33,415 nt of DNA from NCBI GenBank assembly GCA_051892935.1, contig JBJFGS010000043.1, forward strand, positions 1 to 33,415, written 5' to 3'. This document shows positions 23 through 33,415 of this stretch, piece by piece. A program made the position numbers and the translations under genes. The stretch is from Candidatus Coprovivens sp. GTDB lineage: Bacteria > Bacillota_I > Bacilli_A > RF39 > UBA660. A model generated the notes under the pieces. That model made no database searches. It saw only the letters and a list, made by a program, of their open reading frames with translations, and was not told where the DNA came from. The number at the start of each line of letters is the position of its first letter. Position 1 is the first letter of the stretch.

Positions 23-54
23 AAAAGAATAAAGCTATAAGGCTTTATTCTTTT
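23..54 (-). terminator. Intrinsic terminator overlapping the stop codon of the 566-aa gene
   Basis: Stem AAAAGAATAAAGC (23..35) / GCTTTATTCTTTT (42..54) with a 6-nt loop. Confidence 0.7.
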
Positions 55-1735
55 TAGATTGAAGATATTCATCTAGTATGGATATATTATAGGGATTAAA
101 TAAATTATCAAATTCTTTTATTGAAATAGTTAAATCCAAAGTAGTTTGATTATCTTTTTTATTAATAAATCTTATTGTTGCATTTTCTAGATTAGTTGAT
201 GAATTACTAAAGTAGAAGTGAACGTTACCATGAGCAATTGCATTTCTAATGTATTCTATTAAGTATCTATTATAATAATAATTACTATTATCATCTAAGT
301 TAAATTCATTTAACTTTTGTTCACGTTTTTTAAGTGTTTCTAACTCTTCTAGTTGTTCTTCTACTATTTTACTTATTTTATTATTAAGAGCTTCAAGAGC
401 TATTTTTAGTTTTTCTTGTTCTTCATTTGTTTTTGATGTACTAAGTAAACGTTTTATGTTTGCTTGTTGAGTTTTTATTTTTTCTAGTTCATTATTTATT
501 GTACTTAGTCTTTTTTGAGAAGCAGTTACTGCATTACTATAAGAAGATTGCCTTCCTTGGGGAATTATAAAAATTGTTGGTTTAAGTACTTGAAGATCTA
601 ATTTACTATAATCAAAGTAGTCTATTCCATCATTGGTATTATCTTTTGATTTACAGATATTTTCTAATGGGTATTGATAATGGGCATAAAAACCTAGAAG
701 TTCTGTAACGAGAATCATTTCTAAGATACTTGTAAATAGATTGTTAGAACTAATATTTTGAATGGCTTGATTTAATGATTGATAATTGGTGTTTTCTAAG
801 CTATTAAGAACATATAAATTATAATGAATACCATCTGTAATGTTTTCTAATGGTTTATCATCATTTAAAAGTTTCTGATACCAATTTGATATTAGTACTA
901 TTTGAGTTCTTAAATCCATTTTTTTTATTTCAGATATATTTTCTTTGATAAATGATGATAATTTATTAGCGTGTTTAGTTTTTGATAATGGTTTTATAAC
1001 TGGTTCAACTTCAATACCATATTGATTAAAATAGCTTTTTATAAGATTTGGAGATAACTTTGTATTATATTTTTCTTCGTATAATGATATAGTTTTTGGA
1101 ATCTGTTTAAGTAATTCTTCTATTAAGGCTTTTTTTTCTGGAGTTATAGAGTTATTGCTATGGAAGTTATACTCTATATAATAAATGTTATCTAATATAT
1201 TATTGATATCATTATAATGCTTTATTTTTTTGGTATTGGAAGTACTGCCATAGATTTGAATTCTTTGATAAGTAGAAGATGTTGTATATAAATCTATTCT
1301 TTCTATTAAAAGAATTGTAAAACTATATAAAGCATTTTTAGGTATTTTAACTTGTTGGTTTTGAATATTAAGTATTATATTATCACTTGTAGAATCTATT
1401 ATAAATTCACCATGAGCGATTTTATTACGGATTATTTTTATTATTTCATCTTTATTTTCAAAAGGTATATTCCCTAAATAATATTTATTACCTATTTTTT
1501 TACAGATAATACTGATGATTTGTTCTAATATGTTATCATCTATATAGTTATCTTTATTTTCATCTTTAGTAGTTATTCGATCTTTATTAAGAATTATATT
1601 TAAACAGGAAAAAAGAATTTCTAGAGTTTTTATTTGAATTGGTTGTTGAGATAGTTGGTTTGGTCTGTTAAAAATAAAATCTTTGTATGACATAAAAGCA
1701 TGATTAAAAGATACTAAAGAGTTTATGTTATTCAT
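35..1735 (-). CDS. Tandem (two-motif) HEPN-like putative ribonuclease with a coiled-coil insertion
   Basis: 566-aa ORF with RBS GGAGG. Two R-N-x3-H motifs: IRNKIAHG (R103/H108) and IRNAIAHG (R497/H502). A heptad-like K/E/L-rich segment precedes the second motif. Confidence 0.7.
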   Translation of the reverse strand: MNNINSLVSFNHAFMSYKDFIFNRPNQLSQQPIQIKTLEILFSCLNIILNKDRITTKDENKDNYIDDNILEQIISIICKKIGNKYYLGNIPFENKDEIIKIIRNKIAHGEFIIDSTSDNIILNIQNQQVKIPKNALYSFTILLIERIDLYTTSSTYQRIQIYGSTSNTKKIKHYNDINNILDNIYYIEYNFHSNNSITPEKKALIEELLKQIPKTISLYEEKYNTKLSPNLIKSYFNQYGIEVEPVIKPLSKTKHANKLSSFIKENISEIKKMDLRTQIVLISNWYQKLLNDDKPLENITDGIHYNLYVLNSLENTNYQSLNQAIQNISSNNLFTSILEMILVTELLGFYAHYQYPLENICKSKDNTNDGIDYFDYSKLDLQVLKPTIFIIPQGRQSSYSNAVTASQKRLSTINNELEKIKTQQANIKRLLSTSKTNEEQEKLKIALEALNNKISKIVEEQLEELETLKKREQKLNEFNLDDNSNYYYNRYLIEYIRNAIAHGNVHFYFSNSSTNLENATIRFINKKDNQTTLDLTISIKEFDNLFNPYNISILDEYLQSKKNKAL

Positions 1736-1738
1736 CTT

Positions 1739-2881
1739 CTAAACCTCCAATTTTAATTTTTTTTGTTCACTTGTTTTTTCTAATAAATAAGAAGAATTTA
1801 TTAAGTAAAATAATGTATCTAATCTCATTGAACAATGGAATTCTGTTTGATTATTTTTTATATAGAATAGTTTTATTATTGGGTTGGCTAGAAATCTATT
1901 AATTTCAATTGTTCCTGATTGATAAGATTTAGTGATGTACATAAGAATATTTTCATTATATATTTCAGGAGACATTCTTAAAATATAAAGGGAAAAAAAG
2001 TAATTGTTTTTTTCTTTTTCTATTTCTATTAGTTCTTGTTCGATACGAGTTATTATTTTTAGACTTACTTTTAAATCATGATCATAACGTTCTCTTTCGA
2101 TATATAATTCATTTTCTTTTTGTAATAAAAGTTTGATCTTTTTTTCTATTTCATCTATTAATGGATTGTTAATAGTAGTTTTTCTTAAACCTATTTCGTT
2201 TTGTGGTAATGAAATCTCTTGAAAAGGGATTTCTCTTTTATTATAAGCATATACCGTAAAAGGGTATAAATTTAAATAACTCGAAAGTATTTTTAAGTAT
2301 TTTAGAGGATAGTTTTCTAAACTATCATTTATTGCTTTTATTATCATATCATTCATTAAAGATATGAAATCCTCTTTGGTATGAGTGATGTAAGGAATGG
2401 TGTCTTGATTAATTTTTGTTGTTCTTTCATAAATAAGAGCTTTTTCTACATGGGTAGTATAAAATGCTGGTTTGTTAATTCTATTAAATTCTATTATCTT
2501 CCCTTTGCTTGTGAAATGTGTATTTGTAGGTTTAGGATTATTTGTATTATTTAGATAAATTATATTATTATTGTTTTTTGTAGTATTTTCTATTATGCTT
2601 AATGTATTAATTAATTCTTCTAGAGTAATTATTATATCATTTATTATAATGCAATTATCTTCTAATATGAAATTACTATCTTCTATTAAAGATAGATAAA
2701 GTTCCTTATTGGGAATGTTTGATTTAATAAGATATTCTTTGTTTAGTGTTAAATAATATATTATTAATTCTATTTTTAGAGTTGAATCTAATATAGGAGT
2801 TTCATTTTTTGTTAAGGCATTACAAAAAGAATTGTTACTTATTACAAATTTTTTTAAAGTATCAGATTCTCTTTGAGTCAT
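1739..2881 (-). CDS. Hypothetical protein; degenerate paralog of the tandem-HEPN protein
   Basis: 380-aa ORF. Coiled coil followed by EIYNENILMYITKSYQSGTIEI...IKLFYIKNNQTEFHCSMRLDTLFYLIN, which aligns by eye with the C-terminal block of 35..1735. No R-x4-H in that block. Confidence 0.6.
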   Translation of the reverse strand: MTQRESDTLKKFVISNNSFCNALTKNETPILDSTLKIELIIYYLTLNKEYLIKSNIPNKELYLSLIEDSNFILEDNCIIINDIIITLEELINTLSIIENTTKNNNNIIYLNNTNNPKPTNTHFTSKGKIIEFNRINKPAFYTTHVEKALIYERTTKINQDTIPYITHTKEDFISLMNDMIIKAINDSLENYPLKYLKILSSYLNLYPFTVYAYNKREIPFQEISLPQNEIGLRKTTINNPLIDEIEKKIKLLLQKENELYIERERYDHDLKVSLKIITRIEQELIEIEKEKNNYFFSLYILRMSPEIYNENILMYITKSYQSGTIEINRFLANPIIKLFYIKNNQTEFHCSMRLDTLFYLINSSYLLEKTSEQKKLKLEV

Positions 2882-2899
2882 ATTAACTACTTCCTTGTA

Positions 2900-3160
2900 T
2901 TATAAATTATAATCTTCTTTTATTTTTTCTATTTCTTTAATAATGACTTTTTTCTTATTAGGAGATATATTAGTATTTAACATATTTATTTTATTAAGAA
3001 TATTAGCTTTTTCTTCATTATCTATATTTAACTTGTATATATCATCTTTTAATCTACTATATTCATCATTATTTTGTGATTCTTCAATAGGTATAGAAAA
3101 AAATTCTGTTAAGTTATTACCTAATTGATATGATGTTTTGTTTTTTACTATAAGTCCCAT
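2900..3160 (-). CDS. Small hypothetical protein, first gene of the putative 86/380/566-aa operon
   Basis: 86-aa ORF with GGTGA RBS. It lies 18 bp before the next co-oriented gene and has a plausible charged, helical composition. Confidence 0.65.
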   Translation of the reverse strand: MGLIVKNKTSYQLGNNLTEFFSIPIEESQNNDEYSRLKDDIYKLNIDNEEKANILNKINMLNTNISPNKKKVIIKEIEKIKEDYNL

Positions 3161-3202
3161 ATGTAATCACCAGTTATATTTTATCATATTTTATTAGTAT
3201 AA

Positions 3203-3227
3203 TAAAAGATGAGTTATAAACTCATCT
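3203..3227 (-). terminator. Intrinsic terminator of the 509-aa gene
   Basis: AGATGAGTT-ATA-AACTCATCT hairpin (3207..3227) followed by a T-run on the minus strand. It overlaps the TGA stop. Confidence 0.65.
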
Positions 3228-4751
3228 CAAAGGCATTCCAAAATCTTCTATTCGATAATTAAAGTTTTCTATAAAGACAATAAGTTTTTCAATATTTATA
3301 GTAGCTTTAAAAACTACTTTACCTATTTCGTCGTTGTATTTTTCAAATACAATTTGATTAGTTCCTAGTTTAAAGTATACTCTTCCATATTTTACGCATT
3401 CAAGTAATAGTTTTATTATTAAATCATTATCAAATGCTATGCTTTCTATTGAAGTTTGTTTAGCTATACGAATACTATCTTGAAGAATATTTCTTTTTTG
3501 TCCTAGTTCTTCTTCTAGAGTTTCATGAGAACTAAAAGATGATAATAAGCTTTTTCTTTCTTGTTTAATTTTTTTTAATTCTTCTTTGTCCTTTATTTGA
3601 TCTAAGTTTGATATTATATTAGATAAATTATCTAATATATTAGAAATAGTTGATTTTTCTTCAAGAGACTTATTAATTTGTTTAATTATTGAATTTAATT
3701 CAATTAATTCAGCTTCTGTTTTAGATGATAGGTACTCATCTATATTAAAATCTGTTAAAGATGTTAATTCTAAATCTATATCTAATGAAGTTATTATTTT
3801 AAAATATATATTTATTAAACCTATTATGGCTTCTTTTCTATTTATGTCATTTATTTCGTATCCGTGGACATTTTTATCACTTGCTATAAGAACTAGTTTT
3901 TGAGCCGCTTTTTTGGCTTTTTTATTACTATTAATAAATTCTATCATCCATTTATTTAAGTATTTTTGTTGTACTTCTAATGTTTCACTATAGAATGTCC
4001 TTCCTAGTTGTTCTGCTTTAGCTACAATAAAGAAAGCATCTGTTAATTTATATTTACTGATTTCGCAATTTACATTAGGGGATGTTTCATTTTCAAATAA
4101 TTCAATTATATCTGATACTTTTATTTCTTTTTTACCTGTAAGTTGACTATTAGTTTTAGCTTCTGTACTTGAAAATTCTATATCATAATCAATATTAGGA
4201 TTTGATGATGATAGTTCTACTAAGAAAGTTTTTGTATGGTGTAAATAATTTAATAAAGCATTTTTATCTGTTATGTTGTTTTCTTTATTTTTGTTATAAA
4301 AGTACATTCTTTGATACTTTGTTCTTTCGGTTGCTTGAGCTAGACGATATAACCATATTTGAGGTATTGTTGTTTCAAGATCTGTACTAGATACGAAAAT
4401 ATTATTTGATTCATCAAATAGGTAGTTTCCTTCTTTTAATGCTTCTATTAATAATGTGTAATATTTTTTATAATCATAATTATATCTTGGATCTTGATAT
4501 GGGGTATGTGTTGGTTCATCATAAATACCTGGTATTTTTCCATCTATCAAAAATTGATTTAAAGAAAAAGGTTGATTTAAATCAAAATTATCGATTAAAT
4601 CATTGATAGAAAACAAATTGAATAGGTTTCGTTTGGCTTCTTCAAATTGTTCTGTACTATCAAATTCAGAGGAGATTTCTTCACTTAGGTTAACTTTGTG
4701 GGCTAAAAAGCGAATTAGTACTTCAATGCATTTTAGTTCTTTAATTGGCAT
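3222..4751 (-). CDS. Hypothetical protein; degenerate paralog of the tandem-HEPN protein
   Basis: 509-aa ORF with AGGTG RBS. N-block LLIEALKEGNYLFDESNNIFV..TTIPQIWL, coiled coil, C-block DNDLIIKLLLECVKYGRVYF...VFKATINIEKL. R-x4-H is absent from both blocks. Confidence 0.6.
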   Translation of the reverse strand: MPIKELKCIEVLIRFLAHKVNLSEEISSEFDSTEQFEEAKRNLFNLFSINDLIDNFDLNQPFSLNQFLIDGKIPGIYDEPTHTPYQDPRYNYDYKKYYTLLIEALKEGNYLFDESNNIFVSSTDLETTIPQIWLYRLAQATERTKYQRMYFYNKNKENNITDKNALLNYLHHTKTFLVELSSSNPNIDYDIEFSSTEAKTNSQLTGKKEIKVSDIIELFENETSPNVNCEISKYKLTDAFFIVAKAEQLGRTFYSETLEVQQKYLNKWMIEFINSNKKAKKAAQKLVLIASDKNVHGYEINDINRKEAIIGLINIYFKIITSLDIDLELTSLTDFNIDEYLSSKTEAELIELNSIIKQINKSLEEKSTISNILDNLSNIISNLDQIKDKEELKKIKQERKSLLSSFSSHETLEEELGQKRNILQDSIRIAKQTSIESIAFDNDLIIKLLLECVKYGRVYFKLGTNQIVFEKYNDEIGKVVFKATINIEKLIVFIENFNYRIEDFGMPLR

Positions 4752-4852
4752 TTTTTACACCTACTCTCCTACTATGTTTATCTTTTATTATTATAACATA
4801 AGAGAAATTAAAAAACTACAATTATGTTCTATAAAAAAAGTTTAACGATTGG

Positions 4853-5923
4853 TTAAACTTTAGTAGTTGGATTATTTAGTTCAGAATCATCCTTTAAAGG
4901 AGTTAAAATTTTTAATAGTGATTTTATATCAATTTTTGTATCTTGTGATAAACCTTCAACGTGAATATATCCTTTTATTGGTTCACCAAATCTTTTTATA
5001 TCTTCATAATCTTTAGCAAATGTTCCGTTAATTAGTTTTAGTGTTGAAGGAATTGTTTGTTCTTCATTTGAATATGAAACTGAAGATTGGTCTTTTTCTG
5101 GAGGAATATTTTCAATATCTTGGTGAGTTAAATCTTGGCTAAAACTAAAAATCGTATTATATAGGTATTTTCCGGATGCTTCAAATGGATTTAGTTCTAA
5201 AATATCATACATATTTTGATAAGAAAAAATGTCTATAACAAAAGTATCAGGGAAATTAGGATTTTTATGTTCAAGAATTCTTTCTACATATTCAATTACT
5301 TCTATAGGTATTCTATGATATGTTGTATCTGTTATTCTTGAAATATTCATAATTCTGTTTTTATAAATAAATATACGATATTCTTCTTTTCCGAGTTCAT
5401 CTTCATTAATATCAACCTTTTCTGAAATAATGAATTCTTCATCTTCATGATAAGTGAAGGCTTTCCTTAGAGCACTATTTTCATCAAATAACTCCGATAA
5501 ATCAATTATTCCATTAAAGTCTTTTTTCTTTGTTTTTAAAAATACTTCTGTTTTATTATGAAATACTTTATATAAGTATTGTAAGAATTCTTTATCATGT
5601 AGATATGAACCAGTAAAAGATATTATTAATCTTTTTGTTTCAAAATAGTTATACCATTCTTCTATTTTATTTAAAGCTTCTATGTTATTGGGAATTATAG
5701 CTCCTTGTTCTATTAGAGCTTTTATCATATTGGGGAGTTGAAATATGAATGATGAAGGTATTATTTTCTTACCTTTAACATCTATTATATTATCTTGAGA
5801 GTCTTTGAATTCATTTGTTGTTTCATCATAATAAATAAATGCATTTTGACTTAATGCGTATTCTATTTCTCTATTTGTTCGTGGTAAGTTAGTAAATTCT
5901 TTGTTGTTATAACAATAATACAT
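4853..5923 (-). CDS. ATP-grasp domain protein (DUF4343/R2K, Cdc123-like clade)
   Basis: Motifs VFLKT, FIISE, EYRIFIYKNRI, FVIDI and ILELNPFEASGKY (ExN). The ATG at 5923 has an AGGTGA RBS and is preferred over the GTG at 5932. Confidence 0.75.
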   Translation of the reverse strand: MYYCYNNKEFTNLPRTNREIEYALSQNAFIYYDETTNEFKDSQDNIIDVKGKKIIPSSFIFQLPNMIKALIEQGAIIPNNIEALNKIEEWYNYFETKRLIISFTGSYLHDKEFLQYLYKVFHNKTEVFLKTKKKDFNGIIDLSELFDENSALRKAFTYHEDEEFIISEKVDINEDELGKEEYRIFIYKNRIMNISRITDTTYHRIPIEVIEYVERILEHKNPNFPDTFVIDIFSYQNMYDILELNPFEASGKYLYNTIFSFSQDLTHQDIENIPPEKDQSSVSYSNEEQTIPSTLKLINGTFAKDYEDIKRFGEPIKGYIHVEGLSQDTKIDIKSLLKILTPLKDDSELNNPTTKV

Positions 5924-5953
5924 AAATATCACCTGTTTATGTATTATATCATT

Positions 5954-6832
5954 TTATCGGCTATATCTGTTTTTTATTTTTTTAGTTAATGTTAGAGAAT
6001 GTTCTGAAATGTAAATATTATTGTTTCTTCCTGATCCTAAAATAATATATGGTTTGATATCAATTCCGTGGTAGTCACTACCACCACTTTCTAATAAATT
6101 ATATTTCTTGGCTTGTTCATGATAAAAAGCTCTTTCTTCTGGAGTTAGATTAGGATGTATAGTTTCTAATGAATCTATTCCTGCTGCAACAAAGTAAGGC
6201 ATTATTTCCGCAAATTCAGAATTAGTATATTTTAGACTACTGGGATGAGCCAAGCTTGTTGTTCCACCTGCTTGATGAATTAGTGATGCTCCTTCTTCTA
6301 AGGTTATGCCTCTTTTTACTTTTCTGGCTTTATCATAAATAGGATTTAAATATCGATCAAAGCATTCATCGACATTATTACAAAAGCCATATTTAATTAA
6401 TAATTTTGCTAGTTGGGGACGACCAATATTTCCTTTAGTATTTAATAAGCTATCGATTTCAAATTGGGGGAAAGTAATACCATATTCTTTTTTTAATAAA
6501 CTTATGTATAACAATATATTATATATAGATATTTCTTTTATTTCTCTTAATACTTTATTTAGTGTTGGATTATCAACATCTATGTTATACCCTAAAAGAT
6601 GCATTCTTCCTTGTTTGTATTTTATAGTTAATTCTACTCCACTATAAATATTTATTTTAGGACTATTATATTTTATTATTTCTTTTGATCCTTCTATATC
6701 ATCATGATCTGTTAATGCTAGATTCGTAATATTTTGAGATAAAGCTATTTTTACTATTTCTGTTGGAGTATTACATCCATCAGAATGAACACTATGAGTG
6801 TGTAAATCATCTATTCTATTTTTCATATACAT
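5954..6832 (-). CDS. PHP-domain metal-dependent phosphoesterase (TrpH/YciV-like)
   Basis: DLHTHSVHSDG, ALTDHD, GVEL, HLLGY, GRPQLA, LAHP, GGSDYHG. The true start may be the ATG at 6826. Confidence 0.9.
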   Translation of the reverse strand: MYMKNRIDDLHTHSVHSDGCNTPTEIVKIALSQNITNLALTDHDDIEGSKEIIKYNSPKINIYSGVELTIKYKQGRMHLLGYNIDVDNPTLNKVLREIKEISIYNILLYISLLKKEYGITFPQFEIDSLLNTKGNIGRPQLAKLLIKYGFCNNVDECFDRYLNPIYDKARKVKRGITLEEGASLIHQAGGTTSLAHPSSLKYTNSEFAEIMPYFVAAGIDSLETIHPNLTPEERAFYHEQAKKYNLLESGGSDYHGIDIKPYIILGSGRNNNIYISEHSLTLTKKIKNRYSR

Positions 6833-6925
6833 TTTCCTTCTTTTTTCTTTGTTTGTATTGAATTATAAAATAAAAATAACTATAATAAAAATACTTTCTT
6901 TTTATATTTATGATAACAGGAGGTT

Positions 6926-7843
6926 ATGATAATGAATATGAATATTAATTTTGAATTATATAGAATATTTTATGTAGTGGCAACTGTCGGTAATATAACA
7001 AAGGCTAGTCAAAAACTAAACATTAGTCAGCCAGCTGTTACAAAACAAATAAAGAACTTAGAAACCCAACTTGGAGGAGAGTTATTTATTAGAACAAAAC
7101 GAGGAGTTATTTTAACTGATAATGGTCGTGAAATATATAATTTTATTAAACAAGCTATGAATTGTTTTAGTAATGCTGAATTACAATTTTCTAATTTAAA
7201 AAAATTAGAATCTGGAGTAATTAGAATTGGGACTAGTATAGCTTTAGCGAGATTTTTTTTAATGAAATATTTAGATATATTTCATAAGGAATATCCGAAT
7301 GTAGCAATACAATTATTTACAGATCCAAGTAAAGTTATGAGAAAAATGTTGAAAGATGGTACATTGGATATATTAATAGCTAAAGAGGAAAATATGGAGG
7401 ATGAGGATTTAGATGTAATTAGAATTGGTGAACTACATCATTGTTTCGTTGCTTCTGATTATTTTTGTGAATTAAAAGAAAGAAAGATACATTTACAAGA
7501 TTTAGAAGAATATCCTATTTTACTGCAAAAGACTCCTTCGACTACTCGTGAATCATTTGATTCATTTTGTAAAGAACATAATATTGAAATTACAACTAAG
7601 TTAGAAATAGCCAGTGCTACTTTATTGGAAGACTTTGTAAAGATTGGTTTAGGTGTTGGGCTTGTTACAAAGGAGTTTGCTCAAAAGGAGCTTGATGAAG
7701 GATTAATATTGGAGGTAAAGACTATTCCTGAAATACCTTCAAAGTATTTTTCGTTAATTACTTTAAAAAATTCTTATCATAGTTTTGGAGCAAATAAGTT
7801 ACAAGAAATAATATTGAATGACATAAAAAAAATTTCTAAATAG
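6926..7843 (+). CDS. LysR-family transcriptional regulator
   Basis: N-terminal HTH ITKASQKLNISQPAVTKQIKNLE..LFIRTKRGV.LT..G plus substrate-binding domain. GGAGG RBS; divergent from the PHP gene. Confidence 0.95.
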   Translation: MIMNMNINFELYRIFYVVATVGNITKASQKLNISQPAVTKQIKNLETQLGGELFIRTKRGVILTDNGREIYNFIKQAMNCFSNAELQFSNLKKLESGVIRIGTSIALARFFLMKYLDIFHKEYPNVAIQLFTDPSKVMRKMLKDGTLDILIAKEENMEDEDLDVIRIGELHHCFVASDYFCELKERKIHLQDLEEYPILLQKTPSTTRESFDSFCKEHNIEITTKLEIASATLLEDFVKIGLGVGLVTKEFAQKELDEGLILEVKTIPEIPSKYFSLITLKNSYHSFGANKLQEIILNDIKKISK

Positions 7844-7854
7844 AAATTTTTTTT
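7825..7854. terminator. Bidirectional terminator between convergent lysR and phosphoesterase genes
   Basis: AAAAAAAATTTCTA-AA-TAGAAATTTTTTTT inverted repeat; the stem is weak and AT-rich. Confidence 0.55.
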
Positions 7855-8740
7855 ATTTGTAAGTATATACTAACTTTTTTCCCTTTTTTTGTGGTTCTAA
7901 ATTAAGAATTGTACAATTTAAACCAAATATTTTATTTATTAAAGGTACTTCTACAAAACTACTGACTGCGCCATTAACTAAAAATAATGTATCAGCAATA
8001 TCCCTTATTCCATATGCTATATCTGGAAACAAGGTATAATCTGGAGATAAAAAGCCATATCCATTTAACTTATCTTGAAGAAAATTAGGTGTAAAACCAT
8101 TATGCATATGACCACTAACGACTAAATCAGTATTAGGAACTAAACATCTTTTCGTTTCCTTACTTATGTGATATAAGGATTTTGGATCATGACATAATAA
8201 AATACTAAAATATTCTTTGGAGAAAGACATTTTATTATTTCTTATGTTATATTCTTGAAGAAAGAATTCTTTTGATTCGTGATGTTCTAAATAATAGTAT
8301 ACACTATTATTTATGGCACTAAATTCTAGATCTTCTGTAACTACTTTTTTATTTATATCTAATAATTCGATATTAGGAAGAATACTAAAAGTTGATATTG
8401 CAGCAGATGAACAATAAGAAGACCAATTTTCAAATCCAATTCTTTCATACTGATCATGATTACCTAGACTTATATAAGTTTTAGTATCTCCTGTTAATCT
8501 TGATAAATCACTTATTATATGTTTTTTTGTCGAATGAGATTCTAAGCATTTTCCAATATGAACAATATCTCCTGGTATTAATATATAATCATATAATTCT
8601 GGAGATAATTGAGGAATTTCAAATATTTCTTTAATGTTGCTTCGATCTTTAAAACCTAAGTGTAAATCTGAATATATAAGTATTTTTTTAGATTTTTTTA
8701 TCTTATTTGAATAAATAGTTAATCTTCTAATCTTTCCCAT
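7853..8740 (-). CDS. Calcineurin-like metallophosphoesterase
   Basis: SDLH, PGD, GNHD, HDP and SGHMHNG motifs. Confidence 0.9.
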   Translation of the reverse strand: MGKIRRLTIYSNKIKKSKKILIYSDLHLGFKDRSNIKEIFEIPQLSPELYDYILIPGDIVHIGKCLESHSTKKHIISDLSRLTGDTKTYISLGNHDQYERIGFENWSSYCSSAAISTFSILPNIELLDINKKVVTEDLEFSAINNSVYYYLEHHESKEFFLQEYNIRNNKMSFSKEYFSILLCHDPKSLYHISKETKRCLVPNTDLVVSGHMHNGFTPNFLQDKLNGYGFLSPDYTLFPDIAYGIRDIADTLFLVNGAVSSFVEVPLINKIFGLNCTILNLEPQKKGKKLVYTYK

Positions 8741-8791
8741 AAAGATACCTCTTGGTAATCTATTTTATCTTTTAATAAGAGAAAGTCAATT

Positions 8792-8815
8792 AAAAAAGAT
8801 GATTATTATCATCTT
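8792..8815 (-). terminator. Intrinsic terminator after the thioesterase gene
   Basis: AAGATGAT-TATT-ATCATCTT hairpin with a T-run on the minus strand. Confidence 0.55.
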
Positions 8816-9218
8816 AGTCAATAAAAAAATATGTTCCTGTTACTGTAGCAGCTAAAACATTTTCTTCTGTATAGATATTCGAGCGATATACAGCAGTTGT
8901 TTTTCCAACTTTTAAAATTTCTGCAATACAAATAATTTTTGAACCTTTACAAGGTTTTAAGTAATCTATCTGTGAGTTTATAGTAACAACATTTCTTCCT
9001 GTTGTACGTGCTAATAAGCCCATGGTTGTATCTGCTAAACCAAAAATCAAACCACCATGAGCTGTTTGATTAGGATTTAGTGATATTTCTGTTAATTCAA
9101 TAGACATTTTACATTGTTTATCATTTAATTCTTCAACATGCATATTATTATGTTTTATGAATCCTTCGTTATGTTCAACATAATCAATAATTTGTTTATA
9201 TATTTCTTCTTTTTTCAT
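8814..9218 (-). CDS. PaaI-family hotdog-fold thioesterase
   Basis: LNPNQTAHGGLIFGLADTTMG and IDYLKP motifs; AGGAG RBS. Confidence 0.92.
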   Translation of the reverse strand: MKKEEIYKQIIDYVEHNEGFIKHNNMHVEELNDKQCKMSIELTEISLNPNQTAHGGLIFGLADTTMGLLARTTGRNVVTINSQIDYLKPCKGSKIICIAEILKVGKTTAVYRSNIYTEENVLAATVTGTYFFID

Positions 9219-9310
9219 ATATTCCTCCTATTTCGTTCATGGTTAATTTTATTACAATTATTATTTTTTTACCAGTATTTTATTATTAAAAATTATTATA
9301 TAATAGTGAT

Positions 9311-10069
9311 ATGGGGATGATTAATTTGAAATATATAAAAGAACATATGGTATTTATTATTATATCTTTAGCATTACTAATTATGCTACTAGGAGTGTTT
9401 TTTTGGAATAAAGTAATTAACTATCAAAGTAGAGATAATCAAGAAACAACTAGTTCTTCTAATGTTAATGTTAGTGATGCTAATAATGTAGAAAGTGTTG
9501 AGTCTAAGTTAGGACAACCTATGAAAATTACTCAAAGTTATTTAATAAGATATACTACTAATAAAAGTGGTATTTGGTATATGAGTAGTGCTGTTGTAAA
9601 AAGTGTAAGTATTAAAAATGATACTGCTATAATAAAGTTAATTAGCGAAGATAAAAAAGATACTATTGTAGGAACGATAGATAGTGATAAAGCCGATGTT
9701 AAAAATGGTGATTTAGTTAATTTTGTAGGTACTATTGATTTTGACTTAGGAGGAATAAATTTAACAAAAATATCTAAAGATACTATTAATTATATAAATG
9801 TTACTAAAATGGAATTTGGAGATTTAGTTAATAACATAAATGCTATTGTAAACAATCAATTTATTATTAGTGGATATATGGTAACCGATGGTGATAAGTA
9901 TAAACTATTTGAAAGCAAAAATTCATACAATATTAATGATAGTGTTGGTAGTTATTTTGTATTAGAATGGAAAGAAGAATTTGGTTATACAGGGACATCA
10001 AGTGTAACTGTACAATGCTATATAGGTGATACATATAGACTTAAGGATTGTGAATTATTGGATAATTAA
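9311..10069 (+). CDS. Membrane-anchored extracytoplasmic hypothetical protein (possible OB-fold domains)
   Basis: N-terminal TM helix, S/N-rich linker, beta-rich domains (VKNGDLVNFVGTI; VTVQC). Confidence 0.7.
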   Translation: MGMINLKYIKEHMVFIIISLALLIMLLGVFFWNKVINYQSRDNQETTSSSNVNVSDANNVESVESKLGQPMKITQSYLIRYTTNKSGIWYMSSAVVKSVSIKNDTAIIKLISEDKKDTIVGTIDSDKADVKNGDLVNFVGTIDFDLGGINLTKISKDTINYINVTKMEFGDLVNNINAIVNNQFIISGYMVTDGDKYKLFESKNSYNINDSVGSYFVLEWKEEFGYTGTSSVTVQCYIGDTYRLKDCELLDN

Positions 10070-10080
10070 TTATTTATAAT

Positions 10081-10112
10081 AAAATAAGAGCAGTAATAAT
10101 TGCTCTTATTTT
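10081..10112. terminator. Bidirectional terminator between convergent genes
   Basis: AAAATAAGAGCA-(8 nt)-TGCTCTTATTTT. Confidence 0.7.
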
Positions 10113-10789
10113 AATCTAACATTATTTTTTATGATATTTATTTGATTAGCTATTTTTTCGTAATCCGAGAAATACTCATCTGAGTATTCTTCTGTTGTTG
10201 GATATTTAATAATGACTGTCTTTTCTTTAGAAGAAGTTATTTTTTCAATATAACTATTTTCATTTTTATTTAAAACTTTAAATTCATCGTTTGAAACTGA
10301 AATGATTCTAAATACTTCTCCACCATTTTTCATATTTGCTGTACTATAAACAATAAATCCATTTTCGATTTTTTCAATTGTGCTTATCTTTATTAACTCA
10401 GCTGGGATTGTCATTGAAAATTCATCATTAGAAAAGGTATTAATATATGATAGTATGTCACTTATATCTTCTACACTAAAAGAATATGCTAAATCAGAAG
10501 AAGAATCTTCATTATTTTTTAATACTCCCTTTATAGTTAATTCTGAATTATTTTTTATGTCTTTATCGTAATCTAACTCTATCTTATTGATTGTATTACC
10601 ATCTATTATAACTGGTTTATCTAAATTCAGAATACTTATTTTCTTTTGTTCATTATTTTCTGTTATTTCTTTTATCGTTACTGTACCACTTAATTCGATT
10701 TCTTCATTTAGTTTTAGTTTTTCTTTTCCGCAATTAGTTAGTATTAATGTCATAATTATTAATGCTGCTATTTTTTTAAACTTCTTCAT
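10106..10789 (-). CDS. Putative lipoprotein
   Basis: MKKFKK, hydrophobic stretch and lipobox-like LTNC-G; AGGAG RBS. Confidence 0.7.
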   Translation of the reverse strand: MKKFKKIAALIIMTLILTNCGKEKLKLNEEIELSGTVTIKEITENNEQKKISILNLDKPVIIDGNTINKIELDYDKDIKNNSELTIKGVLKNNEDSSSDLAYSFSVEDISDILSYINTFSNDEFSMTIPAELIKISTIEKIENGFIVYSTANMKNGGEVFRIISVSNDEFKVLNKNENSYIEKITSSKEKTVIIKYPTTEEYSDEYFSDYEKIANQINIIKNNVRLK

Positions 10790-10820
10790 ATTATAATTCT
10801 CCTACTTTGATTATAGCATT

Positions 10821-10856
10821 AAAAAACATTCACATATTTAAAATATATGAATGTTT
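10821..10856 (-). terminator. Intrinsic terminator closing the addBA-led minus-strand run
   Basis: AAACATTCACATATTT-A-AAATATATGAATGTTT imperfect hairpin with a T-run on the minus strand. Confidence 0.6.
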
Positions 10857-10860
10857 ACAA

Positions 10861-11361
10861 TTATTCTTCTAAATTATTTACATCTATACCTGAAGAGTTT
10901 ACAATTGATTTATATTCTTTAATGAATTCGTTTATCTCAGGGATGTAAAAAGCACATTTTTTATCATAAATAAAAGTACTGTCAACAGTTGTAAACATTG
11001 TATAATCATCTTTAATATATGAACAAATATATTCTTCGTTTTTTAATTCTAAGGCAGGTATTTCTTTACTTAATGTTAAAAGGTATTCTTCGGTATCAAT
11101 GTAAATACTAATGTCAGAATAATTGATAGTATAATTATTATTTCCTACTTGTTTAGAACAAGTTTTTTTATTGCAACTATATCCTATTTCTTCTAAATGA
11201 TTTTTTAGTTTATTTGAAGGTGTATTTCCATTATAGATAAATAAAGCTAAAACTATTAGAAATATTAATACAATTACTATTGGAATTATAATTATTATAT
11301 AGTTTTTTTTGCTTAATTTTACTTCTTTACTATTATGTTTTAATTCTAAATTTCTTTTCAT
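10861..11361 (-). CDS. Membrane-anchored hypothetical protein with four Cys in its C-terminal domain
   Basis: 166 aa with one N-terminal TM helix; GGTGG RBS. Confidence 0.7.
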   Translation of the reverse strand: MKRNLELKHNSKEVKLSKKNYIIIIIPIVIVLIFLIVLALFIYNGNTPSNKLKNHLEEIGYSCNKKTCSKQVGNNNYTINYSDISIYIDTEEYLLTLSKEIPALELKNEEYICSYIKDDYTMFTTVDSTFIYDKKCAFYIPEINEFIKEYKSIVNSSGIDVNNLEE

Positions 11362-11369
11362 ATTACCAC

Positions 11370-11825
11370 CTAGACTATTGCCCCATTATTTTCCTTTTTG
11401 ATTTTTTTGATTTTTTCTTTTTCTTGTTGCTTTTTTAATTTTTTTTCTTTTAATGATTTATCTGTTTTAAGATAGTAAATAAAGTATATTGAGTTTATAA
11501 TACTTATAATTACTATAATAATGTATTCAATTATAAATATTAACATTTTTGAATCATAAATACTTATTACTAAAATTAATAAGAGAATACAGAGTATTAC
11601 GTTAATAATATTAAAAGTGAGACTAAGTTTAATATGAGTTTTGTATTTTATAGTAATACCTGTTATTAATAGCACTATGTAAGGAATGGCCCAACCTATT
11701 ATTATGGACATTATCATTATATATATTGTGTTTTCACTTAGTTCAGATACTAATAATATAATGCCTAAAATAATTGATGTTAATATATTAATTAATGATA
11801 ATATTTTTTCTTTTGATTTATTCAT
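11370..11825 (-). CDS. Hypothetical membrane protein (about 4 TM helices, basic tail)
   Basis: Four hydrophobic segments; AGGTGA RBS; tightly packed between co-oriented genes. Confidence 0.75.
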   Translation of the reverse strand: MNKSKEKILSLINILTSIILGIILLVSELSENTIYIMIMSIIIGWAIPYIVLLITGITIKYKTHIKLSLTFNIINVILCILLLILVISIYDSKMLIFIIEYIIIVIISIINSIYFIYYLKTDKSLKEKKLKKQQEKEKIKKIKKENNGAIV

Positions 11826-11833
11826 AATATCAC

Positions 11834-13471
11834 CTATGCTAATTTAGGAAGATCATTTTGTTCGATGATTCCATTTAATATAAAATGATTGCTTATTTTT
11901 AATAATTCTTTTATAGATATTTCTAAGTAAAAAGAGTTATCTGTTTTTTCATAATCTTCAAAAATTATTATATTGCTAAATATAGAATTTGTATTATTTG
12001 TTTTCATATAATAATTACATCCTATTGTAGAATTGCATAGGTGTCTTATAATTGAATGGTTATAATTATATAATTCAATATTACGATATTTTTCTGATTG
12101 AATCTTTTTTAATTCTTCGTATTCTCTTGTTAATGAAGAGATGGTCGAATTCAAACGAGCTATTATAATACTATTTCTATTTATTTGACTTACACATCTT
12201 TCTAACTCTTTTTGATATTTTTCTGGACCTAGTTCATCTTTATTAAGGATGGCTCTTTCATTTTTATTTTCTTCTAGTTTTCTTTTGGCAGTTGTTAATT
12301 CTTGATTATAGCTATTTAATCTATTTTTTATATCTTGTTCTTCTGTTTTATATATTCTATTCATATATTGTGGATGAACTGATGTTAAATCAATTAAGCT
12401 ATAGTCTATTTCATCTAATTCACTTAGATATGTTAATAGAAATTGATTAATAGTAAGTATTAATAGTAATTTTATATCATTTATATTATGATTTTTCTTA
12501 ATTTGTATGTATGTATTGTTTGGTTCTATCTTAATAATTGAGAAAAAATCTATTAAACTATCAATTGAAGTATTCATATGTTCTAATAGGGTTAAATCAT
12601 TACTTGACTGCCATACGATATTTTCTATTATATGAACTTGTTTACTTAACTGTTGATTATAAAAATCTTCATCTATATATTGATATATTTTATCTAACTC
12701 TTTAGGTTCTATTTCTAATATATTTTTCTCTTCTTCTTCTAATTCAAAACCTTCCCTATTACATTCTGATTTTAGTAGATTATAAAATATTAAGTATGAT
12801 TCTTCGTTTTCAAGTCCATGTTTATATTGCTTTAAATGTTTTAAATAATTAATTGCAGCATTTTTTACTATTAAAATATTGTTTTCACGTACTTGCCTTG
12901 TTTTATCTGTTCTTTTAACGCGAATACTATAATATGTGAACTTACTTAAGAAATTTTCAATATTTGATGAATCTACTAGTTTAGTTATTTCTTTATTTGC
13001 TATAGTATAGCGAATATTAATTTCTTTAGAATCATAATTTTTAGTATTATCAAGAATTAAAGATATAAAGGAAATTAACCAACGAGAATTAACATATGTA
13101 TTATCTATAAAATATATTTTTTCTTCTGTTTCATTATAAATATAATCTAGTTGTTTTATTTTTTCTCTTATTATTAATAATAATTCTAATTCATCGTTTG
13201 CTTTTATATCTGTTATTTTAGATATATTATTAGGATTTTCTATTGTAAAATGATTTAAATAATTTTTATATTTTTTTTCTAAATAATCTGGTTCATTAAT
13301 TAATAGTTTAAATAAGTATATATATATAATAAAATTGTTTTTTTCAGATTGGCGATAAAAGTATGCAGATTTATTAACAGGTAGATTGGGATTTTTTATC
13401 ATCTCAATTAAAGAATTAATAATAAAAGAAACTTTTTCTTTTGTTTTCTTTATTGTGTTTTTATCTAACAT
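11834..13471 (-). CDS. Hypothetical protein; degenerate paralog of the tandem-HEPN protein, downstream of addA
   Basis: 545 aa with AAGGAGG RBS. LIIREKIKQLDYIYN matches KIIRNKIAHGEFIID; IDYSLIDLTSVHP matches FDYSKLDLQVLKP; YNYNHSIIRHLCNSTIGCN..LEISIKEL matches YYYNRYLIEYIRNAIAHGN..LTISIKEF. Confidence 0.7.
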   Translation of the reverse strand: MLDKNTIKKTKEKVSFIINSLIEMIKNPNLPVNKSAYFYRQSEKNNFIIYIYLFKLLINEPDYLEKKYKNYLNHFTIENPNNISKITDIKANDELELLLIIREKIKQLDYIYNETEEKIYFIDNTYVNSRWLISFISLILDNTKNYDSKEINIRYTIANKEITKLVDSSNIENFLSKFTYYSIRVKRTDKTRQVRENNILIVKNAAINYLKHLKQYKHGLENEESYLIFYNLLKSECNREGFELEEEEKNILEIEPKELDKIYQYIDEDFYNQQLSKQVHIIENIVWQSSNDLTLLEHMNTSIDSLIDFFSIIKIEPNNTYIQIKKNHNINDIKLLLILTINQFLLTYLSELDEIDYSLIDLTSVHPQYMNRIYKTEEQDIKNRLNSYNQELTTAKRKLEENKNERAILNKDELGPEKYQKELERCVSQINRNSIIIARLNSTISSLTREYEELKKIQSEKYRNIELYNYNHSIIRHLCNSTIGCNYYMKTNNTNSIFSNIIIFEDYEKTDNSFYLEISIKELLKISNHFILNGIIEQNDLPKLA

Positions 13472-13485
13472 ACTTTTACCTCCTT

Positions 13486-16400
13486 TTATAATTTTTCTAA
13501 GTCTCCACTAATAATGGAGTATAAATAAATGTTTATTTTTTTATTAGATATTTTTTCTATATATGATTTATAACCATTTAATTGTTTTAGATAATTGTCA
13601 TCTTTGATATTATTTAGTTTATAATCTATTATATCTATTTTATCTTCATACTCTAACATTAAGTCAATTATACCATGATATTCTAAAGAATCATCACTAT
13701 AAATGAATTCGTATTCTTTATATATAGTGGCATTTTGAATATTTTGTAATAATTTATTAGATAGAAAATCTTTTATTTTGTTTTTTATAAAGGTATTTTC
13801 TATTAATTCATAGTCTGGATTTTTAAAATCTAAATATTCTAAAGTCTCATGAACTTCTAAACCAAATTTCATATTATTAGAGGTTTCTTTTGTAATTAGT
13901 TCGTGTGTATTTTTAGAAAAGTGTTCTTGAGATATTGTATTAGTTTCTAATATTTCTATAGGTATTACTTTGAAATCTTTTGTTTTTGTAGGTTCTATTG
14001 ATGTTAATGATTGATTATTATATAAGTATTGTTTTGTGATACCAAGTTTTTCAATATCTATTTCTTTATAATATTTTAATAGATTGTGTTTTACTGAATT
14101 CATTATTTGACTGAAAGAACGATATTTTCTTCTAATTGAAATATCAATCGTATTATTTTCATCTAAACTATTTATTACTTCTTCTACTTTAGGAGTAAGA
14201 AGAATTATTGTTTCTTTGGCTCTAGTTAAAGCTACATAGAATAAGCGTATTTTTTCAGATACTTCTTCTTCTAGATAATGATATTTTACAAGATATTTTA
14301 TTACAGATTCATTAATACCTTCTTTAAAGTATGGCGTTATAATTCCGTATTTGTTATCAAATAAGAATTTTTCTTTTAGGTCACTAATATTGAATCCTTT
14401 GTATAAACCACTATAGTAACATACGTGATATTCTAGTCCTTTTGATTTATGAATTGTCATTATTTTTACTGAGTTAGATGATGTGTTAACGGCACTATAT
14501 TTCATATCATAGTCTGTATCAAGTAGTTCGTTAAGGTAGTCTCTAAAAGTATATATATCATATCCTAAATTGCTTAAATTTGATGCTATATCATATAATT
14601 TTGATATACGTATTATTGAAGCTTCGATATTCCCTATCTCGATAAATTTTTCGTACATATTAGTTTTATTTATTATTTTTTCTAGTAATGTATTTATGCT
14701 TGAAGATGTTACTTCGTTAGCTAGCTCTTGAAATGTTTTAAAAATTGTAGTCTCTTTGAAGCTATTATTTTTGAATGTTTTAAAAATTTCATCATCAGTT
14801 AGATTAAATAAGTAACTTCGAGCAATGCTTATATAGTCGTATTTAAATTCTGTGTCATATTCTTTTAGGTTTATTTTTACGATAAAATCGATTATGTTTT
14901 TTAATATGTATATATCGTTAGAATTATTTAGTTTATCATCTTTATATAAGGTTAATGGTATTCCTAAATATTCAAATATCTTTTTGTATAAATCGAAATC
15001 TGTTGTTCTATCCATTAAGATAACAAAGTCATTATATGTAATGTCTCTTAGTACTTTATCATCTTTATTAAATACTTGATATTTAGAATTGATTTTTTCT
15101 TTGATATCTTTGGCAATAGCAAAGATTTCGATTTCTTCTTTAGAATATTTTTTATTATTTGTATCATCATATTCTAGTATTTGAAAATCATAATTATAAT
15201 CAGTTAATCCTTCTTCTATATATGATGTATTTCCATATACCATTTGATGAGATTCATGATATTCTGCTCCACCTATTACATCATCCATGACTAGGTTAAA
15301 TACTTCATTAATATTTGATAGTACTTCTTTTCTGGAACGAAAGTTTTTTACTAAATCTATTTTCATTCCATTGTTACCAAGAGCATAATTATCATATTTT
15401 GATTTAAATATGTATGGATTGGCATTACGGAAGCGATAAATACTTTGTTTGATATCCCCTACACAATAGGTATTATTGTTTTCAATCATACCTATAAATG
15501 TTTCTTGTATATCATTAGTATCTTGGTATTCATCAATCATTATTTCTTTAAATGTATCTCTTAATTCATTACGTACTGATTCATTTTCTTGAAGTACTTT
15601 TATAGATAATAAAGCTATATCTTGAAAATCATAGATATCATTATCTTGTTTGTATTTGTGAAGAGCATCCAAATAATCTTTTAATATTGCTATTATTATT
15701 TCACTATATTCTTCTATATTTTTTATAGATTCAAGAATACTTTCTTTATTCCCATAAGTGTATATAGTGTTTTTTAATTCATCTAAGGCTTCTTTTAATT
15801 TATCACGAGCAGATTTTGTATCATCTTCACTACCACGTGGTAACATTGGTAATTTAATAATTCCAATTGTTCCATAGAATTCATCTATAGAGTGGCAATT
15901 AAATAAAGGTGTTAAGGCTTCTGTTAATTTTACAGCATATTCACCATCTGTATACATAGTCAGATTGTATGATAATTTGTCAACTTCTTTAGTTTTTATT
16001 TGTAAAAGTTGTTCATATTCATTAAGACACTCTTCAATAAATTGATTACTAAAATAGTTATTCATATAGTTTTTAATAGATTCTTCTCGATTAGGAAATG
16101 AGTCTATTTTAGTAGCAATCTTTAGAATAGATGATTTAAGTTCTTTGTCATCTTTAACACAGAAGTCATATATTAATTTACTGAATTTATCACTTGGATT
16201 AGTGTAATATTTATCAAATATTTCATCCATTATTTTATTTTTTTGAATATCGATAATTGAAGCATCTGATATACCAATATCATTTGAGATATTAAGTAAA
16301 TAGTGATATTTTTTTACTACTGATAAAGCAAAGGAATCGAATGTTGTTATGTATGCTTGATCTATTAATTCTAGTTCTTTAGCTAGTGAAGGATTATCTG

Positions 16401-16623
16401 GTATACCTTTTTTTATCGATTTTCTGATACGCTCTTTCATTTCTCCAGCCGCTGCTTTGGTAAATGTTAAAATAAGTAATTCATTTATGTGAGTCCCTGA
16501 ATTTAAAATACGCATTGTTCTAGCTGTTAAGACGGCTGTTTTCCCCGATCCAGCACCAGCTGATACAATTATATTAGTTCCTGTTTCGTTAATAGCACGT
16601 TCTTGTTCTGGTGTCCAAGCCAT
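13486..16623 (-). CDS. addA: ATP-dependent helicase/nuclease subunit A (UvrD-like helicase plus PD-(D/E)xK nuclease)
   Basis: SAGAGSGKT, LTFTKAAAGEMKERI, DEYQD, VGDIKQSIYRFRNA, NFRS, MTIHKSKGLEY, YVALTRAK; C-terminal GIIDL..IIDYK..QL.GY. Confidence 0.93.
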   Translation of the reverse strand: MAWTPEQERAINETGTNIIVSAGAGSGKTAVLTARTMRILNSGTHINELLILTFTKAAAGEMKERIRKSIKKGIPDNPSLAKELELIDQAYITTFDSFALSVVKKYHYLLNISNDIGISDASIIDIQKNKIMDEIFDKYYTNPSDKFSKLIYDFCVKDDKELKSSILKIATKIDSFPNREESIKNYMNNYFSNQFIEECLNEYEQLLQIKTKEVDKLSYNLTMYTDGEYAVKLTEALTPLFNCHSIDEFYGTIGIIKLPMLPRGSEDDTKSARDKLKEALDELKNTIYTYGNKESILESIKNIEEYSEIIIAILKDYLDALHKYKQDNDIYDFQDIALLSIKVLQENESVRNELRDTFKEIMIDEYQDTNDIQETFIGMIENNNTYCVGDIKQSIYRFRNANPYIFKSKYDNYALGNNGMKIDLVKNFRSRKEVLSNINEVFNLVMDDVIGGAEYHESHQMVYGNTSYIEEGLTDYNYDFQILEYDDTNNKKYSKEEIEIFAIAKDIKEKINSKYQVFNKDDKVLRDITYNDFVILMDRTTDFDLYKKIFEYLGIPLTLYKDDKLNNSNDIYILKNIIDFIVKINLKEYDTEFKYDYISIARSYLFNLTDDEIFKTFKNNSFKETTIFKTFQELANEVTSSSINTLLEKIINKTNMYEKFIEIGNIEASIIRISKLYDIASNLSNLGYDIYTFRDYLNELLDTDYDMKYSAVNTSSNSVKIMTIHKSKGLEYHVCYYSGLYKGFNISDLKEKFLFDNKYGIITPYFKEGINESVIKYLVKYHYLEEEVSEKIRLFYVALTRAKETIILLTPKVEEVINSLDENNTIDISIRRKYRSFSQIMNSVKHNLLKYYKEIDIEKLGITKQYLYNNQSLTSIEPTKTKDFKVIPIEILETNTISQEHFSKNTHELITKETSNNMKFGLEVHETLEYLDFKNPDYELIENTFIKNKIKDFLSNKLLQNIQNATIYKEYEFIYSDDSLEYHGIIDLMLEYEDKIDIIDYKLNNIKDDNYLKQLNGYKSYIEKISNKKINIYLYSIISGDLEKL

Positions 16624-19010: not shown

Positions 19011-19043
19011 AGTACCACCCTATTTTATTTTAACATAATAAAT

Positions 19044-19073
19044 AAAATAAGAGTAGAAATAAACTACTCTTAT
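19044..19073 (-). terminator. Intrinsic terminator after the GGDEF gene
   Basis: ATAAGAGTAG-AAATAAA-CTACTCTTAT perfect 10-bp stem. Confidence 0.7.
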
Positions 19074-19081
19074 CTTTGGAT

Positions 19082-29505: not shown

Positions 29506-29588
29506 GATTTTTTATATTCTATTATAGGTATTATTCTTTAGTTAGAGTCCTTAATATGGTATAATTATGATGTATATTAAAGGAGGTA

Positions 29589-33339: not shown

Positions 33340-33366
33340 AAAAAAGATTCTATAAGAATCTTTTTT
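33340..33366 (+). terminator. Intrinsic terminator of the metallopeptidase gene
   Basis: AAAAAAGATTCT-ATA-AGAATCTTTTTT. Confidence 0.7.
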
Positions 33367-33390: not shown

Positions 33391-33415
33391 TTATTTTTTT
33401 TAATTTATATTGTAT

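Follow-up and report, generated by a model that had tools for sequence, protein, structure and literature searches.

The window analysed here, read from a draft genome of Candidatus Coprovivens sp. (1.81 Mb, 26.5% GC), is the entire contig C43, 33,415 bp in length; near-identical DNA is found mainly in pig-gut metagenomes. At one end of it lies a gene for a protein of 566 amino acids (aa), designated D566, which is preceded by genes for proteins of 509, 86 and 380 aa (A509, B86 and C380) in the order 509-86-380-566. D566 combines two HEPN-type motifs of the form R-N-x3-H in one chain, and A509 and C380 are relatives of D566 in which these motifs have decayed. Cas13, Csm6, RNase L and many toxin and abortive-infection systems act through HEPN ribonucleases (RNases); a HEPN pair within a single chain is uncommon, and such pairs are believed to have given rise to Cas13.

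When D566 was searched with the regular expression R-x4-6-H, exactly two matches were returned, RNKIAH at residues 103-108 and RNAIAH at residues 497-502, both embedded in I-R-N-x-I-A-H-G. Calculated from the protein's own composition (2.3% R, 1.6% H and 12.2% N), about 0.03 RNxxxH sites would be expected by chance; the motif observation is real and far above that level. Among 17 homologs sharing 36-96% identity, R103, K105, A107, H108, G109, R497, N498, A499, I500 and H502 are invariant, and in a family alignment of 166 rows (the query and 165 proteins of 500-640 aa) R103 is present in 159 and H108, R497 and H502 in 165 each. By regular expression, 158 of the 166 proteins hold both motifs, seven have no N-terminal R-x4-H match, including P0045 and P0050 with K in place of R, and one has neither; P0175, one of the seven, retains both motifs and was missed by the position window of the expression owing to a long C-terminal extension. 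Across these sequences the two motifs tend to be retained or lost jointly, a pattern that fits one composite site and pairing between molecules equally well. The family search gave 31 close homologs, and an exhaustive profile search gave 288 cluster representatives (clusters at 50% identity) at E ≤ 1e-3 and 205 at E ≤ 1e-10, nearly all of 540-610 aa and matching end to end.

The HEPN fold is a four-helix up-down bundle built of two alpha-hairpins. In an AlphaFold2 model of D566 (predicted local distance difference test, pLDDT, 87.3; predicted template modelling score, pTM, 0.80), each motif stands at the C-terminal end of a helix (residues 95-107 and 486-501) that is followed by beta-strands and then by a further helix (133-149 and 539-565), and a long alpha-hairpin (394-433/437-476) immediately precedes motif 2; because the pTM is 0.80, the domains are expected to have a defined mutual arrangement. 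Secondary structure assigned to the models by DSSP resolves the N-terminal module into an alpha-hairpin (4-21/32-49), an insert, the motif helix, a beta-hairpin (111-132) and a closing helix, and in the AlphaFold2 model the C-terminal core consists of its motif helix, beta-strands 505-538 and helices 539-565. The two halves also resemble one another in sequence: profiles of the N-terminal (residues 1-200) and C-terminal (430-566) parts of the family matched at an hhalign probability of 91.7% (E 7.8e-7), the realigned match covering 84 columns that span helix, motif, beta-hairpin and helix, with a reversed control of 0.2%. D566 therefore contains an internal duplication of one helix-RNxxAHG-beta-hairpin-helix module.

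The lineage of the module is suggested by PF18736 (pEK499_p136), for which two bona fide proteins were taken from same-class genomes (2 of 399 genomes scored), with 76.9 and 29.6 bits against the Pfam gathering cut-off of 26.6 bits and open frames of 153 and 200 aa. These matched the C-terminal module at 91.6% (E 8.3e-7) and 91.0% (E 1.1e-6), the beta-hairpin past the motif included, and the N-terminal module at 8.3% and 66.6%, with reversed controls of 0.1-0.2%, so that homology of the C-terminal module to bona fide pEK499_p136 HEPN proteins is supported at the profile level. The ortholog P0002 (69% identity) passes PF18736 in hmmscan with 32.8 bits over residues 453-556, a precomputed PF18736 label is carried by 27 of the 31 close homologs, and nine of 71 diverse family members match it at E ≤ 0.01. 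Weaker, stray matches among the same 71 were to HEPN_Swt1 (two) and RiboL-PSP HEPN (one), and PADLOC assigned RTasHEPN (reverse transcriptase-associated HEPN) to 10 of the 71 and CARF_HEPN to 3+1. A search of the ESM Atlas yielded no clusters other than those of the family itself, which bear the name 'hypothetical protein' and in which 42-72% of members carry PF18736; a look-up of cluster names for the family found none.

HEPN proteins are defined by Rx4-6H with a polar residue (N, D or H) directly after the arginine, inserts between helices 2 and 3 are common among them, and in Csx1 a beta-hairpin lies directly past the motif (PMC3710099). Both D566 motifs have N directly after R and thereby agree with the definition, and both modules fit the description. 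The long alpha-hairpin (residues 394-477) would then correspond to helices 1-2 of the C-terminal HEPN. The original prediction, made from the sequence alone, had described two HEPN-type modules in one chain, two R-N-x3-H motifs each followed by a beta-rich segment and a helix, and a long coiled coil ahead of the second. The regular expression, the model, the internal duplication and the profile match of about 91% to PF18736 proteins bear this out, and the conservation of both motifs, which it had proposed as a check, was found. Its suggestion that the coiled coil may act as a sensor arm gives way to that of an extended first alpha-hairpin of the C-terminal HEPN, and its proposed search of HEPN families succeeded by profile, with PF18736 for the C-terminal module, but not by structure. 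The HEPN assignment of D566 therefore stands as a prediction from sequence profiles and topology rather than from a fold match.

The two larger genes upstream of D566, which had escaped notice in the original prediction, are seen from family profiles to encode full-length, diverged and catalytically dead paralogs that keep the scaffold and lack the catalytic R and H. The paralogy is visible by profile-profile comparison only, BLASTP of D566 against its upstream neighbours being non-significant (E 0.55 and 0.03). The A509 family aligns with the D566 family end to end over 478 columns (hhalign 98.8%, E 7.8e-17) and the C380 family over 370 columns (94.3%, E 1e-7); reversed-profile controls reached ≤0.6% for A509 and ≤0.2% for C380, and with four unrelated, compositionally similar proteins of a related genome the value was ≤0.4%. 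The plain family hidden Markov model (HMM) matches the A-type protein of genome G007 at 5.1e-8. In the catalytic columns of the A509 family (60 sequences) R103 is replaced by I, L or V, H108 by E, D, N or S, R497 by L, I, N or V and H502 by K, R, N or S; in those of the C380 family (22 sequences) R103 is deleted, R497 is replaced by T, A or V and H502 by S, Q or A. Scaffold residues are kept in both, N489 in 58 of 60 and 22 of 22 sequences, respectively, and G503 in all 60 and all 22. D566 is accordingly predicted to be the sole catalytically competent member of the cassette. B86 was considered as a further relative and rejected, its profile scoring ≤2.1% against the three families.

The gene order 509-86-380-566 is repeated in the loci L001 (70% identity) and L002 (= L091; 41% identity), and L090 carries the order 86-380-566. 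Matches to the B86 HMM occur in the window and in L001, L002, L003, L090 and L091, that in L003 being directly upstream of the D gene. A cassette of one live and two dead paralogs with a small unrelated protein, as predicted from the sequences, is thus conserved to 41% identity. Its order is not fixed across the genus, because in L089 (genome G007) a T-box leader (7819-8015, reverse strand) and a 564-aa gene intervene between the 618-aa D-type and 508-aa A-type genes. Since a hairpin resembling a terminator follows A509, B86-C380-D566 may form a tighter unit from which A509 is separated. The HEPN-MNT type of antitoxin has no counterpart here, no nucleotidyltransferase domain being found in the neighbours of D566. 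The coordinates of these features are collected in Table 1.

Table 1. Features of the D566 gene and its cassette in the window (nucleotide positions; all on the reverse strand).
Feature	Position	Strand	Basis and remarks
12-bp inverted repeat, possible terminator stem	24-35 / 42-53	(-)	overlaps D566 stop codon; read directly from sequence
D566 gene	35..1735	(-)	open reading frame (ORF) list; 566 aa; stop codon 35-37
C-terminal HEPN core (predicted), residues 478-566	38..304	(-)	AlphaFold2 model; hhalign to PF18736 proteins
Motif 2, R497-N-A-I-A-H502	230..247	(-)	regular expression; R 165/166, H 165/166
84-residue antiparallel alpha-hairpin ('coiled coil'), residues 394-477	305..556	(-)	interpreted as helices 1 and 2 of the C-terminal HEPN
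Central alpha/beta region, residues 151-393	557..1285	(-)	conserved F349, Y355-P-L-E/D and FDxSxLDL stretches
N-terminal HEPN-like module, residues 1-150	1286..1735	(-)	DSSP of models; hhalign of N against C part
Motif 1, R103-N-K-I-A-H108	1412..1429	(-)	regular expression; R 159/166, H 165/166
C380, shortened D566 paralog, 380 aa	1739..2881	(-)	hhalign 94.3%; 23 homologs; 3-nt gap to D566
B86, 86-aa protein co-occurring with D566	2900..3160	(-)	HMM matches; unrelated to D566 family
Terminator-like hairpin at A509 end	3206..3228	(-)	consensus scan only
A509, full-length D566 paralog, 509 aa, both motifs lost	3222..4751	(-)	hhalign 98.8%; 61 homologs

Immediately upstream of the cassette, the window (4853-6832, reverse strand) and L001 both carry genes for an R2K-clade ATP-grasp protein and a PHP phosphoesterase; these were rejected as cassette members because L002 and L089 lack them at that place. 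Two other lineages have pairs of family members in tandem that adjoin a protein of about 570 aa with an Amidoligase_2 domain, in L017 (8175-9884) and L065 (8435-10153). That two different peptide-ligase-type enzymes adjoin the D566 family may be more than coincidence. Beyond the cassette, the AddAB helicase-nuclease (13486-19010) and a GGDEF diguanylate cyclase (19082-19903) provide an ordinary chromosomal context, and no integrase or transposase was seen among the ORFs scanned (window 35-19903).

Directly downstream of addA/addB, a further paralog with degenerate motifs is encoded by a 545-aa ORF (11834-13471, reverse strand), which the family HMM matches at E 1.1e-27 and for which no Pfam or PADLOC match was found. 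Another lies on contig C39 of the same genome (L092, about 28480-30216, reverse strand), in a frame of about 579 aa in which motif 1 has K for R and motif 2, RNSFAHG, is intact; it is the only PF18736 match in the genome (E 7.4e-4, under the cut-off). Both copies of the tandem pairs in L017 and L065 retain both motifs.

The D566 family comes from gut Bacillota and is frequent in gut metagenomes of animals and humans. In a survey of metagenome-assembled genomes of 64-100% completeness, some family member was present in 19 of 24 other genomes of the same genus and a D566-type gene (E ≤ 1e-80) in four of the 24 (G004, G007, G009 and G017); the 16 genomes belonging to other families of the class had no family match. 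In most of the same-genus genomes that have a family match, the sole one is of the strength shown by the 545-aa paralog (best E 1e-15 to 1e-23). From metagenome contigs, 80 loci were retrieved out of 183 confirmed relatives, and in these distant relatives the gene mostly stands alone. PADLOC defence genes lie no more than two genes from a family member in four of 13 representative loci (L013, L040, L078 and L045), the neighbours comprising a restriction endonuclease, a methyltransferase and HEC-06 in a variable restriction-modification (R-M) island of the L013 type, AbiD in L040, and DUF1848 with a helix-turn-helix protein in L045. In L078, a retron-type reverse transcriptase (5725-6702; PADLOC RT_Ec107-like, E 5e-125) is directly upstream of the family member, and was rejected as a conserved partner, being a single case in 82 loci. 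In L008-L016, L024, L030 and L082 a member of 558-561 aa always stands before alr, with a D12 methyltransferase and then differing gene sets upstream; these sets, which include an AlwI-like restriction endonuclease, GmrSD/HEC-06 and others, vary by metagenome, as in a variable R-M/defence hotspot.

The D566 gene abuts the contig edge, as had been pointed out originally, only 13 genomic bases being left past the stop codon. Bases 1-21 of the window look like an adapter or assembly artefact and not like genomic sequence, because copies of them lie close to the ends of contigs C24, C41 and C42 and, in inverted form, at 33366-33415 of the window itself, and because public metagenome contigs match the window from base 22 onward only; the true sequence downstream of D566 is therefore not given by contig C43. 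The inverted repeat that overlaps the stop codon is a possible terminator stem whose tail would have been lost in the adapter-like end; the consensus terminator scan did not report this repeat (24..53). Three contigs of about 245 nt from metatranscriptome run X20 lie over D566, C380 and the C380/B86 boundary at 94-99% likeness; they are not taken as expression, since the run contains a small share of the words and carry-over of DNA is possible.

D566 is probably, on profile and motif evidence, a single-chain double-HEPN endoribonuclease of the pEK499_p136 lineage that would act as a toxin or abortive-infection effector, with intramolecular pairing as the simplest geometry. In the proposed arrangement, a central alpha/beta region of 240 residues would be flanked by two duplicated pEK499_p136-type modules (residues 1-150 and 394-566), of which the C-terminal one would have its first alpha-hairpin lengthened to a coiled coil of 84 residues. 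The enzyme would be metal-independent, its active site or sites arising where the two Rx4H motifs come together through HEPN-HEPN pairing; in the simplest case this would happen inside one chain, as it does in Cas13. A toxin or abortive-infection function is preferred to a housekeeping one because the live gene is patchily distributed, defence genes are occasional neighbours and a single-gene precedent of the ApeA type exists. A509, C380 and/or B86 may bind the active subunit and either restrain D566 or sense a trigger, as their linkage and the shared scaffold suggest. The fuller proposal, that this is an independent, non-Cas13, non-AbiF invention of a single-chain HEPN pair, which arose by duplication of a pEK499_p136-type module and whose live subunit is held or triggered by the pseudo-enzymes A509 and C380 and by B86, is offered tentatively and may well prove wrong; if true, it would describe a new multi-subunit RNase toxin or defence system in which an inactive copy of the toxin serves as antitoxin or sensor.

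Several observations weigh against these proposals. On the side of the fold, Foldseek of the whole D566 model against the PDB gave no matches at E ≤ 1e-3, VIA-wide returned for the same model coiled coils only, dominated by the hairpin 394-477, structure searches with a model of the N-terminal domain retrieved no HEPN structure, and profile searches of PDB sequences (profiles A1 and A3) gave coiled-coil or chance matches only, at E ≥ 0.033. D566 itself has no significant match in Pfam, PADLOC or NCBIfam, and PF18736 does not match it even at E ≤ 10 or in a six-frame search. On the side of the function, no relative was present among 34 candidate pattern matches in viral contigs, no mobile-element signature was found around the cassette, which follows a 4HBT thioesterase in the window as it does in L002, and many family members are placed between housekeeping genes (the tRNA synthetases LeuRS/ThrRS, GpsA/TsaB, TsaD, RecG-YebC and alr). 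Regulation by partners cannot be general, because most of the family consists of lone genes.

The same enzyme may instead form its sites between chains, as a D566 homodimer or by pairing with the paralogs (N-N', C-C' or N-C'), in the manner of HepT, AbiF and ApeA, and this alternative is regarded as possible rather than probable. Most HEPN proteins pair intermolecularly, HEPN sites needing two domains (10.64898/2026.03.20.713152, PMC12165695), and the canonical PF18736 proteins described above, being single-domain, must do so; the long alpha-hairpin and the paralog cassette suggest oligomerization, and the tandem pairs in L017 and L065 consist of active members by their motifs. D566, however, has its two modules about 390 residues apart in one chain for which the pTM implies a defined arrangement, and its motifs are retained or lost together, although nothing separates the two geometries.

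That D566 is a housekeeping nuclease of RNA processing or turnover in a Bacillota lineage, and not a conflict gene, is considered unlikely. The fixed positions of many members between core genes, the presence of some family member in most genomes of the genus, the lack of viral copies and the several paralogs per genome, one of them beside addAB, all speak for such a function. The intact-motif type, however, occurs in only four of 24 same-genus genomes and in none of the 16 from other families (as metagenome-assembled genomes), the widely retained paralog is the one with degenerate motifs, and some loci have defence-gene neighbours and variable upstream islands.

It is quite improbable that the RNxxAHG motifs serve binding or dimerization in a non-catalytic, structural family. 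The HEPN of AbiA is reported to be inactive and to mediate dimerization (PMC13064643), the structure searches retrieved no HEPN fold, and the paralogs persist without motifs; but in either copy the R, the N or polar residue and the H hardly vary over 166 sequences that share about 20% identity, which is the catalytic HEPN signature, and the same columns drift freely in the dead paralogs while G503 and N489 stay.

Finally, a miniature Cas13-like, RNA-guided effector with its array or guide RNA beyond the contig end, as might be thought from two HEPN motifs near the ends of a chain of Cas13an size and from a window that stops so soon after the stop codon, has been largely refuted and retains almost no credence, since the HEPN type is that of pEK499_p136, CRISPR-like periodic repeats were found in none of 83 loci, including L001 and L090 with 5-10 kb of downstream sequence, tandem repeats or Rfam RNAs beside the gene were found in none of the window, L001, L089 and L090, and PADLOC, Pfam, NCBIfam and Foldseek gave no Cas13 match for D566. 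The statement in the original prediction that the window holds no CRISPR array thus extends to relatives whose downstream flank is present.

The 288-cluster family would represent an uncharacterized, compact double-HEPN architecture drawn from a different HEPN lineage, pEK499_p136, and the cassette, with its one live paralog and two dead ones, provides a testable model of a HEPN toxin regulated by its own pseudo-enzyme copies. If active, D566 would add a new, small scaffold to the RNases, and its gene would be a candidate for defence that PADLOC 2.0 lacks.

With the pEK499_p136 family D566 shares the motif I-R-N-[AS]-I-[AS]-H, the beta-hairpin that comes straight after this motif and the helix that closes the module. 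Canonical members are single-domain proteins, whereas D566 has two modules in its 566 aa, an extra central region of 240 residues and a coiled-coil-like first hairpin. The pEK499_p136 family has been linked to R-M, Pgl and other conflict genes (PMC3710099; Anantharaman et al., 2013).

Cas13 proteins resemble D566 in having two Rx4H HEPN motifs per chain, and in Cas13b the HEPN domains are at the termini. The D566 family differs in the absence of a CRISPR array from the loci scanned, in the lack of a sequence or fold match or of any sign of a guide RNA and in its HEPN lineage. The original remark that D566 is smaller than a typical Cas13 is true but does not set it apart, the 429-577 aa of Cas13an (PMC12165695) overlapping its size; some Cas13 subtypes are known to evade sequence and fold searches (PMC12165695). 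Non-CRISPR, single-chain double-HEPN proteins are already known as an architecture, twelve AlphaFold-DB clusters with an intramolecular HEPN dimer having been catalogued (Yoon et al., 2024; PMC12165695, Table S2); its bacterial non-Cas entries number two, one from Bacillus mobilis (509 aa) and one from Clostridium sp. (467 aa). Compared over ≤400 residues each, the 12 entries include none that has RNKxAHG near residue 100 or otherwise resembles the D566 family. Swt1 and the c2405/AbiTii-fused HEPN proteins likewise have two HEPN domains per chain outside CRISPR systems (PMC3710099, Table 1; PMC13064643), but belong to other HEPN families and carry other fused domains (PIN and the AbiTii N-terminal domain), HEPN_Swt1 being matched weakly by two of the 71 family members.

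ApeA, a protein of about 600 aa whose C-terminal HEPN contains RNKITH, provides stand-alone, motif-dependent defence (10.64898/2026.03.20.713152); it is like D566 in size, in its C-terminal HEPN and in being a stand-alone gene, but has one HEPN and is predicted to form a homodimer, and no Apea-family match was found in D566 or the family members scanned. AbiF and AbiD (Abi_2, PF07751) of the type III toxin-antitoxin kind are also HEPN RNase toxins with an RN..AH motif and a role in abortive infection, AbiF being a homodimer of single-HEPN monomers that is neutralized by a cis-encoded non-coding RNA (PMC12737573). Here, no Abi_2 match was found in D566 or the family members scanned, no repeat or non-coding RNA signal lies beside the gene, and the candidate partners are proteins. 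The HEPN motif, the PF18736 label on relatives and non-CRISPR single-chain HEPN pairs as a kind were thus already known. Literature searches, with some supplements not covered, found no description of the architecture of about 560 aa or of a live/dead paralog cassette; what is new here is the recognition of A509 and C380 as D566 paralogs that have lost the catalytic R and H, and the conservation of the cassette that they form with D566 and B86.

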